IMG/VR virus record: IMGVR_UViG_2693429635_000019
Span: 1 to 15,775 of that record
DNA from: a virus
Taxonomy: Duplodnaviria > Heunggongvirae > Uroviricota > Caudoviricetes
DNA length: 15,775 bases
Direction: 5' to 3' (one strand)
Of the stretch, positions 1,249 to 11,416 are shown piece by piece. Positions within the stretch are counted from its first letter, which is position 1; each line of letters begins with the position of its first letter. Both the position numbers and the translations under genes were made by a program. Below the pieces are notes generated by a model. That model saw nothing but the letters and a program-made list of their open reading frames with translations, ran no database searches and was not told the origin of the DNA.

Positions 1249-1689
1249 ACGTAAACTTTTTCCGGTTGTTGTCGATAGCTCTATATCCCTCAACCGGAAA
1301 ATAATAATAGTAAAATGCTTAGCCCTGCTAATAATCGCCTAATCCAAACGCCTCATTCATGTTCTGGTACAGTCGCTCAAATGTACTTCAGATGCGCGGT
1401 TCGCTGATTTCCAGGACATTGTCGTCATTCAGTGACCTGTCCCGTGTATCACGGTCCTGCGAATTCATCAAGGAATGCATTGCGGAGTGAAGTATCGAGT
1501 CACGCCATATTTCGCTATCAGGATTCTGTGTGATGGTTACATCGCCCGGCTCAGGGCTGTTTAGTCATCAGCGCTTTCTGACAGTGCTGAGATTTCAACC
1601 TGTTGCAGTAAAAATGAGTAGATATAAGGCAAGTGTGCTGCCAAACCCATCTTTTACGGGGTGAAGGTAGATTTCGTTTGAAGGGTATC

Positions 1690-1704
1690 TGGTGTCCCCT
1701 GCAG
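1690..1704 (-). other. tRNA-Arg (argW-type) 3'-terminal fragment CTGCAGGGGACACCA; candidate prophage att core at the host junction
   Basis: Minus strand reads CTGCAGGGGACACCA, equal to the last 15 nt (end of T-stem, acceptor 3' strand, CCA) of argW as I recall it; no tRNA 5' part upstream. Confidence 0.5.
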
Positions 1705-1761
1705 ACATCTACTTGACGAGGCAGGGGATTGATTGGAATGGTGTTTTTTAGATATGAGAAA

Positions 1762-1783
1762 TATTTTACCCGCTATTTTACCC
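1762..1783. repeat. Tandem direct repeat TATTTTACCC x2 (spacer GC) between att core fragment and torI 3' end; candidate recombinase/RDF arm-type binding sites
   Basis: tattttaccc at 1762-1771 and 1774-1783 seen directly; position inside putative attR arm. Confidence 0.35.
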
Positions 1784-1978
1784 ATTGGCGCGGCTTAAGA
1801 GCTTATTTTTGAATTCACAATGGTCACGATATAACCATCTTGCTCGCCCGTGGATAACTTTGGCTTTAGGCAGGTCCCCGGACTTAATCCGGTCATAGAT
1901 GAAGGTTTTACCGAAGCCAGTATCGGCCATGATGAATTTCAAATCAACCAGTGAATCAGGCTGTAGTTCGTGTTGCAT
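1778..1978 (-). CDS. torI: AlpA/TorI-family excisionase (recombination directionality factor)
   Basis: 66-aa ORF, ATG at 1978 with GGAGA RBS 6 nt upstream; sequence MQHELQPDSLVDLKFIMADTGFGKTFIYDRIKSGDLPKAKVIHGRARWLY has AlpA-like winged-helix pattern and matches my recollection of E. coli KplE1 TorI (66 aa). Confidence 0.7.
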   Translation of the reverse strand: MQHELQPDSLVDLKFIMADTGFGKTFIYDRIKSGDLPKAKVIHGRARWLYRDHCEFKNKLLSRANG

Positions 1979-1997
1979 GAGTGCTATCTCCGAATAG

Positions 1998-2013
1998 GGA
2001 ATCGAACCTGCAA
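1998..2013 (-). other. tRNA-Arg (argW-type) T-arm fragment TTGCAGGTTCGATTCC (16 nt), second att-related remnant
   Basis: Minus strand TTGCAGGTTCGATTCC equals argW variable/T-stem/T-loop segment; diverges exactly where fragment 1690-1704 begins in the tRNA. Confidence 0.5.
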
Positions 2014-2023
2014 ATCAGGCAAT

Positions 2024-2044
2024 AAAAAAACCGCATTGATGCGG
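2024..2044 (-). terminator. Rho-independent terminator closing the leftward early operon
   Basis: Minus strand CCGCATCAATGCGG stem-loop followed by TTTTTTTAT; lies 60 nt downstream of the stop of CDS 2104-2448. Confidence 0.6.
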
Positions 2045-2103
2045 CAATGGCAGGTCTGGATATCTTGAGAAATGAACAGGCCTCATCGAGTGTGAGGCTG
2101 TGG

Positions 2104-2448
2104 TTAGTCCTTGCGTAACTCGCTAATTCTTCTGTAAGTCTCTGGTGCTTTGTTTCCGTGTATCTTCATTTCAGACTTCAACAGAGCAACGAGGGAATCC
2201 CATTCGTTGAGGATGCCTTTGAATGCCGGAACGCGCTTTGCAACCTTGTCGAATGAATCTCTGATTTCTGGGATCTGCTCAACAAGTGCAACGCATCGTC
2301 GGAAATCGGCTGCGTCATGTGGAGCGCCGAAGTGATGACCATAGATATTCTTTTTCAGTCCACATGCGATTGAGGCAAGAGTTGCGCTACTGATGCCGAC
2401 ATCGCCAGTCGATTGCCATTTCAAAACCTTCATAGCCAAATCTGACAT
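2104..2448 (-). CDS. Hypothetical protein, 114 aa (moron-like, flanked by hairpins)
   Basis: ORF track 2104-2475 trimmed to internal ATG at 2448 preceded by GGAGA RBS (spacing 6); the upstream part of the longer ORF overlaps a terminator-like hairpin. Confidence 0.6.
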   Translation of the reverse strand: MSDLAMKVLKWQSTGDVGISSATLASIACGLKKNIYGHHFGAPHDAADFRRCVALVEQIPEIRDSFDKVAKRVPAFKGILNEWDSLVALLKSEMKIHGNKAPETYRRISELRKD

Positions 2449-2460
2449 TTCTTGTCTCCA

Positions 2461-2485
2461 ATAAAAAACCGCCATCAGGCGGCTT
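2461..2485 (-). terminator. Terminator-like hairpin (CCGCC-TGAT-GGCGG + T-tract) between Zn-ribbon gene and CDS 2104-2448
   Basis: Minus strand AAGCCGCCTGATGGCGGTTTTTTAT; GC stem followed by T6. Confidence 0.4.
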
Positions 2486-4363: not shown

Positions 4364-4641
4364 TGGGCGGCCTCCGGTATTTTTCTTGCGCTGAATTGAG
4401 GTACATGTTCCATTTCAACCGTGAATACACCTACGCTCTCACCGTCAATGAATAGCTCGATATCCAACGGCCAGTCAGATTCCAAGCCGTCATGATTGTC
4501 AAAATAATCAAGGGAGGCATCCTGAGACAAGCATTCCAATTCCCACTCAGAAATGAGCTCATCGATGTGTCGAGGATCGAGAAAAAACGCATCCTCAGGA
4601 AACGTGCCTGCATCTCTAACTACGTACTGGATTACGCTCAT
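4360..4641 (-). CDS. Strongly acidic small protein, 93 aa
   Basis: ORF track 4360-4695 trimmed to ATG at 4641 with AAGGAGG RBS and ATGA overlap with upstream stop; about 22 Asp/Glu versus 4 Arg/Lys. Confidence 0.65.
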   Translation of the reverse strand: MSVIQYVVRDAGTFPEDAFFLDPRHIDELISEWELECLSQDASLDYFDNHDGLESDWPLDIELFIDGESVGVFTVEMEHVPQFSARKIPEAAQ

Positions 4642-4985
4642 TGGTTGCCTCCTTTGCGAAGCTGGGCAGCAATACTTACGCATATCTCTGCGCATCTAAT
4701 CAGCCCCGGAACGTTCTTGTTTGGCCCAACTTCACCATCAACAAAATCAATCATCGCGTTACGAGCCATCTCCACACCCTGCGCCCGCACTTCAGCCAGG
4801 AAGGCGTCGGTGGCTGGGGTTCCCTCTACCACTAACCCTACTGGAGCTAGATATTCTTTCATCCCCGCATTCTCCACAGCCAGCGCCGCGCACTTGGCCT
4901 CAAGGTTATCAATCGTGATTCCAGCAGAACGACACTCACGCAACGCTGTTTCTAGTTTTGATTCAAGTTCACCGAACTTACGCAC
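4638..4985 (-). CDS. Hypothetical protein, 115 aa (GTG start, no clear RBS; possibly 3' part of a frameshifted gene)
   Basis: Only in-frame start upstream of internal Met is GTG at 4985, immediately after a stop; overlaps a 42-aa ORF (4952-5080) in another frame. Confidence 0.45.
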   Translation of the reverse strand: MRKFGELESKLETALRECRSAGITIDNLEAKCAALAVENAGMKEYLAPVGLVVEGTPATDAFLAEVRAQGVEMARNAMIDFVDGEVGPNKNVPGLIRCAEICVSIAAQLRKGGNQ

Positions 4986-5076
4986 CAGATATCAGCGTTT
5001 GTTTCGTTAACCTTTAAATCACTTGGGATGCATTTACCTTTCAGAAATCCATCCATCTCAATTAGTGACATTTGTT

Positions 5077-7103: not shown

Positions 7104-7123
7104 CCACGCCCTAAAGGGCGTGG
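7104..7123 (-). repeat. Perfect 8-bp stem hairpin (CCACGCCC-TTTA-GGGCGTGG) containing the tnpB stop codon; candidate IS right-end / omega-RNA structural element
   Basis: Inverted repeat seen directly; TAG stop of tnpB at 7111-7113 lies in the loop/stem. Confidence 0.6.
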
Positions 7124-8202
7124 ATTCCTCCTTCGAGACGGCGATGTCCCGCCGCGAGAATGTTCTTTGCCGCGTTTACGTCGCGGTCGTGGAGTTCACC
7201 ACATTCCACGCAGATCCATTCTCTTATTCCAAGGCCTACCCTACCCTTCGGACTACTGCAGCTAATAGCTCCGCAGCACGAGCAAGTCTGGGTGGTGTAC
7301 GCTTCATCTACGACCTCAAAAACCACACTCCGCGCAATCGCTTTATACTGAATCTGATTTTTTAGCTGACACCAGCCGGCGTCGTAGATACTTTTTGCCA
7401 AATTTGTTTTTGATAACTTTTTACTGCTTACGTCGCCTACAAAAATAGCGGCGTATTTATTAACCAGCGCCGTAGAAAACTTATGGTGTGCATCTTTACG
7501 GCGATTTTTGATTTTTGCGTGGATAGCTCTAACACGTTTTTTATTATGGGCACGTTGAGCAATTTTTAATTTGCCTTCTAATTCACGATACCAACGTTTA
7601 GCAGGAAGTTTTTCACCATCCGAAGTGGTGGCAATGTCTTTCAGACCAAGATCGATACCCACGTCGGCAGTGCCTTTAGTTGGTTCGCATTCGTATTCAA
7701 CTGCAACATTGAAATACCAGCGACCGCGCGCATCTTCTGCAAAGTTACCAGCACGGAATTTAAAGCCATTTAATCCATAGCTATCCCACACTTTGAAATA
7801 GTGCCCGGCAAACTTGATGCAGCCGTTTACCCATTTCACTTGAGCACCTTTGAACGGAACCCAACCAAGACTACGCCCAGCACCGCCACTTTTACGCCAG
7901 CGCAGCTTACTGCGTTTAAACTGTTTACGCGCTTTAGCGTGATGTTTTGAGATTTCCTGACAAGTAGCTGCTTGTATGTGGTATCCGCGCTCCTTTTGAA
8001 TACCAGCAATGCGTTTATCTACGTCAAATTCAGTTAACCAAACTCTTTGTTTTGGTCCGTATTCGCTGACAGTGCTGTATTCAGTCGCAGTCATTTCATT
8101 GATAAAGTTAAAAACTTGGTTCACTTCAAAGGCCATCTGACGCAACAAGGCGGCGTGGCGGTCTTTGACGCGTACCTGCAATGTTTTAGTCTGAATAGCC
8201 AT
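7111..8202 (-). CDS. tnpB: TnpB-like protein (IS200/IS605 OrfB family, RuvC-like + zinc finger), 363 aa; RuvC-II catalytic position apparently substituted
   Basis: ATG at 8202 with AAGGGGAG RBS; GIDLGLKD (RuvC-I), AYTTQTCSCCG...CVECG zinc finger, HDRDVNAAKNILAAG (RuvC-III); expected hhhEDLN motif reads AIFVGDVSS. Confidence 0.9.
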   Translation of the reverse strand: MAIQTKTLQVRVKDRHAALLRQMAFEVNQVFNFINEMTATEYSTVSEYGPKQRVWLTEFDVDKRIAGIQKERGYHIQAATCQEISKHHAKARKQFKRSKLRWRKSGGAGRSLGWVPFKGAQVKWVNGCIKFAGHYFKVWDSYGLNGFKFRAGNFAEDARGRWYFNVAVEYECEPTKGTADVGIDLGLKDIATTSDGEKLPAKRWYRELEGKLKIAQRAHNKKRVRAIHAKIKNRRKDAHHKFSTALVNKYAAIFVGDVSSKKLSKTNLAKSIYDAGWCQLKNQIQYKAIARSVVFEVVDEAYTTQTCSCCGAISCSSPKGRVGLGIREWICVECGELHDRDVNAAKNILAAGHRRLEGGIHAL

Positions 8203-10770: not shown

Positions 10771-10776
10771 TATTAT
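10748..10776 (+). promoter_or_regulatory. PR promoter (-35 TTGCAT, 17-bp spacer, -10 TATTAT)
   Basis: Hexamers and spacing seen directly, 27 nt upstream of cro ATG. Confidence 0.6.
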
Positions 10777-10802
10777 TGTTTCATGGTTACTATGGAGGGC
10801 AT

Positions 10803-11134: not shown

Positions 11135-11416
11135 ATGGTTACTATTGCAACTAAAAGCAAGAAAGCGGCTCGCATCGAGTCGGCCTTGCTGAACAAACTG
11201 GCACTGATGGGGCAGAAGACATTCGCTCGAGCAATGGGGGTTCCTGAATATCAGGTAAGCCGATGGAAGAATGGTTTCTTCTCGCAGGTAAGCATGATGC
11301 TTGCTGTTCTGGAATACGGAATCGAAGACGATGAAATGGCTGAATTGACTAAGCGGCTTGCCGATTACCTGACAAAAGAAAAAGCCCCGAAGAACGGCGA
11401 ATTCTTCGAGGCCTGA
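11135..11416 (+). CDS. cII: CII transcriptional activator (lambda-type)
   Basis: 93 aa; ARIESALLNKLALMG...SRWK...MLAVLEYGIEDDEMAEL aligns to lambda CII; AAGGA RBS. Confidence 0.9.
   Translation: MVTIATKSKKAARIESALLNKLALMGQKTFARAMGVPEYQVSRWKNGFFSQVSMMLAVLEYGIEDDEMAELTKRLADYLTKEKAPKNGEFFEA
11384..11412 (-). terminator. Antisense intrinsic terminator inside 3' end of cII (oop-like RNA terminator candidate)
   Basis: Minus strand GCCTCGAAGAATTCGCCGTTCTTCGGGGC stem-loop followed by TTTTTCTTTT; lambda oop terminates at the equivalent position. Confidence 0.4.

Follow-up and report, generated by a model that had tools for sequence, protein, structure and literature searches.

The region at positions 1249-2103 of the window, by which we mean the whole stretch of 15,775 nucleotides that was analysed, is in our estimate with a probability of about 0.88 the attR end of a P22-like (Lederbergvirus-type) prophage, which used the KplE1/HK620/Sf6 module to enter the 3' end of argW. 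Both the junction and the module are already known for this phage family, and the region holds no new kind of system. It does hold a small curiosity, namely a conserved copy of the argW T arm that is carried by the phage itself upstream of the excisionase gene torI. The coordinates of all features are collected in Table 1.

The attR junction and the prophage behind it

The real argW sequence that served as reference, GTCCTCTTAGTTAAATGGATATAACGAGCCCCTCCTAAGGGCTAATTGCAGGTTCGATTCCTGCAGGGGACACCA, comes from the E. coli genome L004, whose site is empty, and positions in it follow standard tRNA numbering. Alignment with this intact locus demonstrates that the two minus-strand tRNA pieces which the first-pass annotation had reported are real, and that both match the true 3' sequence of argW exactly: the 15-mer CTGCAGGGGACACCA (1690-1704) equals positions 62-76 and the 16-mer (1998-2013) equals positions 47-62. 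The annotation had placed a clean split of the 3' 30 nt between positions 62 and 63. The two segments do abut, but they share C62, so that 16 + 15 = 31 nt cover the 30-nt tRNA stretch. These 31 nt in two pieces are all the tRNA-like sequence at the locus, and a tRNA gene or split tRNA gene was rejected, with 0 genes predicted by ARAGORN and no tRNA-like match in Rfam up to E = 10.

Only the 15-mer is a junction between host and phage. Positions 1249-1704 (query 1-456) have 95-100% matches in thousands of E. coli genomes, and in genomes with an empty site this homology stops at the tRNA-Arg 3' end. Host homology stops at 1704 and phage homology begins at 1690, and in this overlap the core CTGCAGGGGACACCA(T) is found exactly, coinciding with the 3' end of argW as well as with the attP core of HK620/Sf6. 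The core published for the module reads CTGCAGGGGACACCAT, with int and xis at opposite prophage ends (PMC2951348; PMC8787464), and MG1655 has these 15 nt under the name of a pseudogene, pawZ. Of the boundary proposed earlier, the 15-mer therefore stands and the 16-mer does not, as it lies inside phage DNA, 293 bp from the core and about 30 nt upstream of the torI start codon. The interval of about 290 bp that had been described between the pieces is confirmed as 293 bp (1705-1997), containing torI and the repeat GGGTAAAAT.

Table 1. Features at the attR end of the prophage (window coordinates)
Feature	Position	Strand	Basis or remark
Host cscB-type oligosaccharide/sucrose MFS transporter, 415 aa	1-1248	+	ORF
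Host spacer, cscB to argW attachment site	1249-1689	.	E. coli genome homology
Small ORF, 43 aa, homologue of HK620 hkaB / Sf6 gene 17	1654-1785	-	ORF list; crosses core
attR core CTGCAGGGGACACCA	1690-1704	-	Identical to argW 3' end; equivalent to K-12 pseudogene pawZ
Putative 7-bp overlap TGCAGGG	1697-1703	-	Next to putative half-site (C)
Putative phage core-type half-site (C) GTAGATGTC	1704-1712	-	Adjoins putative 7-bp overlap TGCAGGG
Conserved P-arm block AATCAATCCCCTGC, possible IHF-type site	1721-1734	-	Kept across lineages in alignments
Two candidate IntS arm-type sites GGGTAAAAT	1775-1783, 1763-1771	-	Invariant; TAAA motif; same as the first-pass repeat TATTTTACCC
torI, excisionase (recombination directionality factor), 66 aa	1778-1978	-	100% identical to K-12 TorI
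torI Shine-Dalgarno GGAG	1988-1991	-	Sequence reading; kept in all lineages compared
argW T-arm copy TTGCAGGTTCGATTCC = argW 47-62	1998-2013	-	Exact argW match; phage-borne
Putative cII-binding site TTGCCTGATTTGC of integration promoter pI, as annotated in HK620	2010-2022	-	HK620 record features
Intrinsic terminator, GCCGCATCAATGCGG then T7, ends upstream early-left gene	2024-2045	-	Terminator prediction

The host side of the junction agrees with its occupied and empty counterparts. Genomes with an empty site have the order cscB, 441 bp, argW, and an 'oligosaccharide MFS transporter' is annotated beside the empty argW site in L004 as well as beside attR in the related genome L003. The latter has the full arrangement of about 40 kb, argW-intS ... 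torI-attR-cscB, and attL of a related genome reads argW-core-TTTATCAG...intS. IntS-type integration duplicates the last 15 nt of argW and has left the copy at 1690-1704 at attR beside the host csc locus, with torI and the two IntS arm-type sites just inside this copy. The integrase gene is expected at the far prophage end (attL), beside the rebuilt argW. As the first-pass annotation had stated for this end, no integrase was found in the window, where ORFs of at least 250 aa are limited to those for the cscB-type transporter, a TnpB-like protein, a replication protein and a DnaB helicase.

The early genes recognised with Pfam in the window are P22-like (ERF recombinase, cI/LexA-type repressor, cII, replication protein and DnaB helicase), and the best phage matches are HK620, Sf6, IME10 and their relatives. 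This P22/HK620-type early region adjoins the module; the window ends inside the prophage and the late genes lie outside it. The homologues of the small ORF that crosses the core, hkaB in HK620 and gene 17 in Sf6, span the attP core, and in the prophage host DNA has taken the place of the 3' end of this frame.

The sequence next to the core deserves attention because of what it says about the 16-mer. GTAGATGTC (1704-1712) is a putative IntS core-type half-site. The same position in relatives reads TTCGATGTA, directly followed by TGCAGGG; it is T-loop-like and resembles the tRNA side, TTCGATTCC. In L192 the arrangement is CAGGTTCGATTATGCAGGGGACACCA, and its pre-core site continues as CAGGTTCGATTA, giving CAGGTTCGATTATGCAGGGG. 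Since the core-adjacent phage site of relatives is itself T-loop-like, the 16-mer is a second copy and not the missing half of a divided tRNA end.

The module compared with known systems

The torI ORF lies 73 nt from the core, immediately inside attR, and the matching genomes annotate the same gene as torI. The repeat GGGTAAAAT fits IntS arm-type sites, for which a conserved TAAA has been described (PMC2951348). Over 8 lineages the two sites retain the invariant runs ATGGGTAAA and CGGGTAAAA, and the site at 1775-1783 overlaps the torI stop codon. A 135-bp attR that is functional in vitro begins just upstream of the arm-type sites, and the name of the primer 'attR-IHF2' hints at IHF sites in attR (PMC3509656); AATCAATCCCCTGC is possibly one of them. 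The intrinsic terminator is found in the same position in several lineages, with differing stem sequences. A sub-threshold isrK-like Rfam match was also seen at 2024-2098. According to Menouni et al. 2013 (PNAS), Rho-dependent termination reportedly keeps torI silent in KplE1.

Alignment with KplE1 (CPS-53) of K-12, the system studied by Panis, Ansaldi and co-workers, bears out the earlier attribution to a KplE1-type recombination module. TorI is 100% identical, the core, the GGGTAAAAT arm-type repeats and the pre-core sequence are the same, and the same 16-mer lies 20 nt upstream of torI; the homology break also matches KplE1/HK620/Sf6. Integrase and excisionase are at opposite ends of KplE1 (PMC2951348), the integrase end being the expected one here. 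There are differences as well. The K-12 element is a 10-kb defective remnant flanked by dsdC, whereas the element in the window lies beside the csc sucrose locus and has early genes that are P22-like. K-12 has a different base after the attB site, which is why its duplication is 16 nt long and that of the window prophage 15 nt. In MG1655, pawZ corresponds to this 15-nt copy of the 3' end of argW at attR, but its annotation is limited to the core copy, and the upstream T-arm copy, outside it, carries no annotation in that genome.

The attP of HK620 and Sf6 (also CUS-3, Kapi1 and IME10) belongs to the same type of module, and over the whole stretch that comprises the core, torI (hkaC / gene 18), the 16-mer and the terminator its nucleotide identity is 96-97%. 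The HK620/Sf6 records annotate the attP core, the arm repeats, the promoters pI and pX and a 'boundary sequence' bsq2. In these genomes, which are circular or from virions, torI-attP-int is uninterrupted, while the module in the window is split by integration. Different genes lie upstream of the terminator, which is what one expects of mosaic phages.

In lambda, the cII-activated pI lies inside xis and the Xis sites are in the P arm. The logic of lambda int/xis control recurs in the module: its recombination directionality factor has phased direct-repeat sites, its integrase has sites of the arm and core types, and a cII-dependent promoter has been proposed at a position that would allow expression of int but not of xis (HK620 annotation). 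The module differs in its order, xis-attP-int, such that integration separates the two genes, in carrying the directionality factor sites on the P' arm (attL), and in its putative cII site, which is N5-spaced and poorly conserved. Unlike in the lambda scheme, intS has its own autoregulated promoter (PMC2951348).

The suggestion that the prophage is a full-length relative of KplE1 is reasonable, given the TorI identity, the matching core, arm repeats and homology break, the P22-like early genes and the arrangement in L003. In L003, HK620 and Sf6, intS is found beside argW (rebuilt in the prophage) with GTTCG-type TorI sites over the intS promoter. This argW-intS/torI-attR arrangement is well described already (PMC2951348, PMC3509656, PMC8787464), and TorI- and IntS-dependent excision has been shown for KplE1 and HK620 substrates (PMC2951348, PMC3509656).

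A conserved T-arm copy upstream of torI

HK620 and Sf6, both deposited phage genomes, have an identical 16-mer, as does K-12 KplE1, and it is nearly invariant over 51 distinct E. coli contexts. Its invariant core, GGTTCGATT, equals each arm-type site in length, holds a TorI-type pentamer GTTCG at 2003-2007 and is conserved in at least 7 genera, where it precedes the torI homologues by about 30 nt. The motif is found in Escherichia, Serratia, Citrobacter, Pantoea, Edwardsiella, Hafnia, Salmonella phage g341c and Erwinia phage Midgardsormr38, the last of which has two tandem copies. Pairwise identity of the motif is 96%, compared with 58% at the third codon (synonymous) positions of torI, 64% in the non-coding P arm and 34% just upstream. 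Judged from these alignments, the T-arm copy is evidently under purifying selection in the argW-targeting modules of several genera. We found no description of a T-arm copy ahead of torI in the open-access literature searched.

The motif is absent from the modules of Dryocola, Tatumella, Rouxiella, the Pantoea 'MELRED' type, Cronobacter, Klebsiella phage Chronis and Erwinia phage Eho49, and the T-arm copy must therefore be dispensable for at least some functional modules. Excision in vitro does not need it either, as the 135-bp attR recombines without the 16-mer (PMC3509656). We also looked for torI/IntS-type modules aimed at another tRNA, and all torI relatives recovered target the argW-type core. 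This includes the divergent directionality factor types of L239 and of Salmonella phage g341c, the latter with an integrase that shares 61% identity with IntS.

Two simple extensions of the observation were rejected. A duplication reaching beyond the T-loop motif was sought in the 26 nt upstream of the 16-mer, which match the pre-core region at 27.8%, the chance level. An RNA hairpin does not serve as a general explanation, since a stem is possible for the T-arm copy of the Edwardsiella type (ACAGG...CCTGT) and not for that of E. coli.

Among the other explanations for the 16-mer, the one that survives best, though we regard it as unlikely, is that it forms part of a cII-activated integration promoter pI, with TTGC repeats that bind cII and the remainder serving as promoter spacer. 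The HK620 record has a 'promoter: phage integration' and a 'cII protein' site that overlap the first 4 nt of the 16-mer, Sf6 has the same pI annotation, and the phage in the window possesses both a gene for a cII homologue and a pRE-type site, TTGC-N6-TTGC. The lambda pI bypasses xis, and by analogy a start just downstream of the 16-mer would bypass torI translation. However, the conserved TTGC-N6-TTGC typical of lambda pI/pRE-type sites was not found in the 16-mer region: the spacing is N5, against N6 at this phage's own pRE-type site, and conservation is poor, the first TTGC being TTAC in 19 of the 51 E. coli contexts, K-12 among them. The TTGC repeats are missing altogether in Serratia, Edwardsiella, Hafnia, Pantoea and Midgardsormr38, where GGTTCGATT is nevertheless invariant. 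A promoter spacer would moreover have no reason to copy a tRNA, and a sigma-70 promoter scan of 1600-2500 detected none.

It is quite improbable that the 16-mer is a neutral relic, the displaced left half of a continuous ancestral tRNA segment in attP into which the torI cassette and P arm were inserted. Phage attP sites often contain long tRNA 3' segments, and an ancestral attP that reached into the T-loop is evident from the pre-core sequence of relatives; the exact identity with argW and the abutting boundaries would follow naturally. But T-loop-like sequence still lies directly beside the core in relatives, for example CAGGTTCGATTATGCAGGGG in L192, and it occurs together with the upstream copy in Serratia, Citrobacter, Pantoea and Midgardsormr38. 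The boundaries do not abut everywhere: in Serratia and Pantoea, whose cores start at T63, the upstream copy extends to ...CCTG and overlaps the core copy by 2 nt (T63-G64). Nor is the 16-mer decaying, because the motif is far more conserved than neutral sites. An insertion of torI into the tRNA segment is thus unsupported, the 16-mer being a second copy.

A scar private to this genome, left by tandem integrations at argW and a later deletion that split the tRNA end around torI, had been offered in the first-pass annotation and is now hardly tenable. The exact abutment of the pieces (47-62, 62-76) does look like a rearrangement breakpoint, but the 16-mer occupies the same position in HK620, Sf6, K-12 KplE1 and nearly all of the 51 E. 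coli contexts, it is conserved in other genera, and host homology ends at 1704, not 2013. The reading of the region as a composite junction is likewise unsupported, the 16-mer being part of the phage itself.

Coincidence can practically be dismissed: GGTTCGATTCC-like T-loops are common sequence words, but an exact 16-nt match in the same orientation, to the very tRNA segment that abuts the core, and conserved across genera, is no chance event when each piece's pattern occurs once in the window even allowing up to 2 mismatches and 0.03 occurrences are expected. A pattern scan of viral contigs (GGTTCGATTCC...GGAG...ATG) did match many places. These were mostly genuine phage tRNA genes, the matches without a downstream torI lying for the most part inside ARAGORN-predicted tRNA genes, and the only useful result was L239.

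Possible roles of the T-arm copy and its meaning for the phage family

Having set these explanations aside, we return to a conserved, phage-borne T-arm copy. We tentatively suggest, at somewhat less than even odds, that it is a protein-binding site in the torI control region, because it holds the TorI-binding pentamer GTTCG and equals the tRNA-side core half-site for IntS, which the integrase has to recognise in attB. TorI and/or IntS may bind it and thereby tune torI expression or the assembly of the attP complex. Known TorI sites read GTTCG, GATCG or GTCCG (PMC2951348), and in five phages such pentamers recur at +21, +31, +41, +84, +94 and +104 from the overlap. The GTTCG of the 16-mer (minus strand) has the same orientation as the attL sites I1-I5. 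Its flanks are G-GTTCG-A, against a TorI-site consensus of A-GTTCG-C/T (32 sites); an A at -1 is present in g341c and in one E. coli variant. Some lineages have a second TorI-like pentamer 12 nt downstream of the motif, where the sequence is GTTCG in P. stewartii, GTCCG in Edwardsiella and ATTCG in E. coli.

This leads to a further idea, which is possible and rather doubtful: phages that target argW might deliberately keep an exact copy of the target's T arm, the attB-side half-site with the pentamer GTTCG of the directionality factor, in the excisionase gene's ribosome-binding region, where it would mimic the target site. Bound by IntS and/or TorI, such a mimic would make expression of the excisionase, or assembly of the attP complex, depend on the state of the recombination proteins.

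The prophage itself adds one more probably full-length, mosaic P22-like element to those at the argW/csc hotspot. Elements at this site are carried by thousands of sequenced E. coli genomes, and 3682 of 5426 E. coli genomes match some part of the region. The T-arm copy is of wider interest. If the mimic reading were true, it would add a hitherto undescribed regulatory site to an integration module that is among the best studied, that of K-12 included. As an operator for IntS or TorI, the T-arm copy would fill the torI control region that is called 'non-characterised' in the KplE1 model (PMC2951348), and the attachment target's sequence would be serving the phage a second time, in regulation.

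An attR junction in a known argW module

Across 5426 complete E. coli genomes, we find that window 1249-1704 is host DNA, which at the empty site joins cscB directly to the tRNA-Arg 3' end, and that phage DNA runs from 1690 onwards. HK620, Sf6, IME10, Kapi1 and other phage genomes match from 1690 inwards at 96-98%. Since host homology extends to 1704 and phage homology starts at 1690, the 15-nt overlap is, judged by homology, the attR core and the sole junction. The first-pass annotation had placed a composite junction at both tRNA-like pieces, but the 16-nt piece (16-mer) lies inside the phage, separated from the core by 293 bp that hold torI and the direct repeat already seen in that annotation. 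A related genome (L003) gives the full order: yfdC, argW, intS, a P22-like prophage of about 40 kb, torI, core and cscB.

Alignment against the intact argW locus of an E. coli genome with an empty site (L004; gene sequence GTCCTCTTAGTTAAATGGATATAACGAGCCCCTCCTAAGGGCTAATTGCAGGTTCGATTCCTGCAGGGGACACCA) bears out that both pieces match the argW 3' region. They reproduce tRNA positions 47-62 and 62-76 exactly, with C62 common to both, and each occurs once in the window at up to two mismatches (expected 0.03). ARAGORN detects no tRNA gene in the window and Rfam no tRNA-like match. As had been claimed, no integrase is encoded here: the only long ORFs of the window encode a cscB-type transporter, a TnpB-like protein, a replication protein and a DnaB helicase.

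Features of the window and of related records
Feature	Record	Position	Strand	Detail
attR core	window	1690-1704	-	CTGCAGGGGACACCA
Direct repeat, two copies	window	1763-1771 and 1775-1783	-	GGGTAAAAT
torI ORF	window	1778-1978	-	66 aa
16-mer (T-arm copy)	window	1998-2013	-	TTGCAGGTTCGATTCC
Two hairpins	window	2024-2103	-	GCCTCACACTCGATGAGGC and intrinsic terminator
ORF	window	2104-2475		123 aa
TnpB-like gene	window	7111-8202	-	363 aa
cII homologue	window	11135-11416	+	93 aa
pRE-type cII site	window	11147-11160	-	TTGCTTTTAGTTGC
16-mer	K-12 KplE1 (L194)	10776-10791		identical
Tandem T-arm-like motif	Erwinia phage Midgardsormr38 (L005)	2306-2334		CAGGTTCGATTCCCGT CAGGTTCGATTCCCAC
Divergent excisionase	L239	~4640-5010	-	MRELRDDSLID...
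Divergent excisionase	Salmonella phage g341c (L315)	1850-2190		MRELRDDSLID...
attL	L003	7231-7480		

The feature is thus the already known KplE1/HK620/Sf6 recombination module, at the attR/torI end of an argW prophage. This type had been proposed from the sequence, and TorI identity (100% to the K-12 protein), the core, the arm repeats and pawZ all agree with it. The attP core and arm repeats appear with the same annotation in the records of HK620 and Sf6, and the K-12 MG1655 annotation already lists these 15 nt of attR as the pseudogene pawZ. PMC2951348 gives the KplE1 core as CTGCAGGGGACACCAT and a conserved TAAA in the IntS arm-type sites. Excisionase and integrase genes stand at opposite prophage ends (PMC2951348, PMC3509656 and PMC8787464) because attP sits between both genes in the phage circle.

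What remains of the window is an early region of P22-like type, which encodes ERF, a cI-type repressor, cII, DnaB and a replication protein. The TnpB-like protein, with Pfam OrfB_IS605 and a Cas12f1-like TNB domain, is encoded inside the early-left operon, with the ERF recombinase on one side and the immunity region on the other; the annotation of a related prophage in strain A2 includes an 'RNA-guided endonuclease InsQ/TnpB family protein'. Enterobacterial-type torI modules also occur on short contigs of the MAGs L012 ('Actinomycetes bacterium') and L027 ('Parachlamydiaceae bacterium'), most likely as binning contaminants.

A conserved T-arm copy ahead of torI

Tandem integrations followed by deletion had been offered as an origin of the split pieces. 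Since an identical 16-mer stands at equal distance to the torI start in HK620, Sf6 and K-12 KplE1, and is near-invariant across 51 distinct E. coli contexts, we reject this origin and exclude a scar private to this genome. Outside E. coli, torI homologues (70-85% identity) of Serratia, Citrobacter, Pantoea, Edwardsiella, Hafnia and an Erwinia phage retain the motif core (C)AGGTTCGATTCC, about 29-36 nt ahead of their start codons. The motif also precedes far more divergent excisionases with other arm-type repeats (GGGCATA) and argW still as target, in L239 and in g341c, which reads AAGTTCGATTCC.

Similarity between lineages starts at the motif, the flanks further upstream being unrelated. In an eight-lineage alignment the pairwise identity is 96% for the motif, 64% for the non-coding P arm, 58% for torI third codon positions and 34% directly upstream of the motif, and the invariant run GGTTCGATT equals each of the two arm-type sites in length. 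This pattern indicates purifying selection on the motif, and its conservation relative to third codon positions speaks against a decaying relic. The motif is absent from Dryocola, Tatumella, Rouxiella, one Pantoea type, Cronobacter, Klebsiella phage Chronis and Erwinia phage Eho49, and so it is not indispensable.

Does the 16-mer represent the other half of a split tRNA segment? In relatives the phage sequence left of the core, presumably the C core-type site, is T-loop-like (consensus TTCGATGTA followed by TGCAGGG, where the tRNA has TTCGATTCC followed by TGCAGGG; CAGGTTCGATTATGCAGGGGACACCA in one Klebsiella-type element), which rules this out. These sites argue that a contiguous, partly decayed T-arm copy still adjoins the core and that the piece ahead of torI is an additional copy, better preserved. 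Beyond the T-loop motif the two copies show no likeness (27.8% identity over 26 nt upstream, chance level). The pieces do abut in E. coli, as the claimed split at 62/63 requires, but in Serratia and Pantoea the second copy extends to ...CCTG and, since the core begins at T63 there, shares 2 nt (T63-G64) with the core copy. Hence the E. coli split is a coincidence of the endpoints of two separate similarities.

The T-arm-like motif is present in two tandem copies with a 16-nt period in Midgardsormr38, and likewise in L147, just upstream of the excisionase gene. L239 and g341c have different arm-type repeats (GGGCATAAA twice) and retain the argW core, the T-arm-like motif upstream and, on the P' arm, GTTC(G/T)-type sites. 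The terminator-motif-SD block of L239 is near-identical to that of a Citrobacter element while the excisionase genes are unrelated at the DNA level, which places a mosaic joint at the start codon. The hairpin GCCTCACACTCGATGAGGC, between the 123-aa ORF and the T-arm copy, is kept in g341c and K-12; in Rfam this gap matches the sRNA isrK of Salmonella prophages weakly and below threshold (14.3 bits, with the gathering score at 50; E = 2.1).

Possible roles of the second copy

Our best guess, at a probability of about 0.4, is that the T-arm copy is a putative TorI and/or IntS binding site in the region controlling torI, termed "non-characterised" in PMC2951348. TorI sites on attL are GTTCG, GATCG or GTCCG pentamers according to the same paper. 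TorI-type pentamers lie in one orientation at +21, +31, +41, +84, +94 and +104 from the overlap (positions from HK620, Sf6, Midgardsormr38, Chronis and Eho49), and the 16-mer contains GTTCG in this attL orientation. In some lineages another such pentamer, 12 nt further downstream, overlies the ribosome-binding site; it is GTTCG in P. stewartii and GTCCG in Edwardsiella. In the 16-mer, GTTCG is flanked by G and A, at odds with the A and C/T of the TorI-site consensus.

The motif also equals the tRNA-side half-site in attB. As the integrase must recognise this half-site there, the motif may be an IntS half-site; if true, this would account for the preservation of the tRNA sequence itself and for the association of the motif with the argW target despite differing excisionases and arm sites. 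Excision in vitro proceeds without the T-arm copy, as a 135-bp attR starting at the torI 3' end recombines (PMC3509656).

On attL of L003, 31 bp or about three helical turns separate TorI site I1 from the argW T-loop GTTCG upstream of it, and both have the same orientation. In the P' arms of HK620, Sf6, Midgardsormr38, Chronis and Eho49 (5/5), position +31, between I1 and I2, is occupied by a weaker pentamer (ATCCG or CTCCG). The pentamers around +31 would form a 10-bp phased triplet, which is not among the sites in the accessible text of PMC2951348.

A cII-dependent integration promoter, annotated at this place in the HK620 record, is an improbable reading of the region, as the spacing of the putative cII site is N5 instead of N6, its sequence varies (TTAC in 19 of the 51 E. 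coli contexts) and most lineages keeping GGTTCGATT have no such site. The dimorphic base of its first TTGC is window 2019 (-42 from the torI ATG; G in 32 contexts, A in 19), and K-12 KplE1 reads TTAC. A pRE-type site with N6 spacing lies antisense in the first codons of the cII homologue, as it does in lambda.

In the accessible literature we found no description of a phage-borne, conserved and selected argW T-arm copy ahead of torI. It is carried, unannotated, by E. coli K-12 as well, and we regard it as a modest curiosity.
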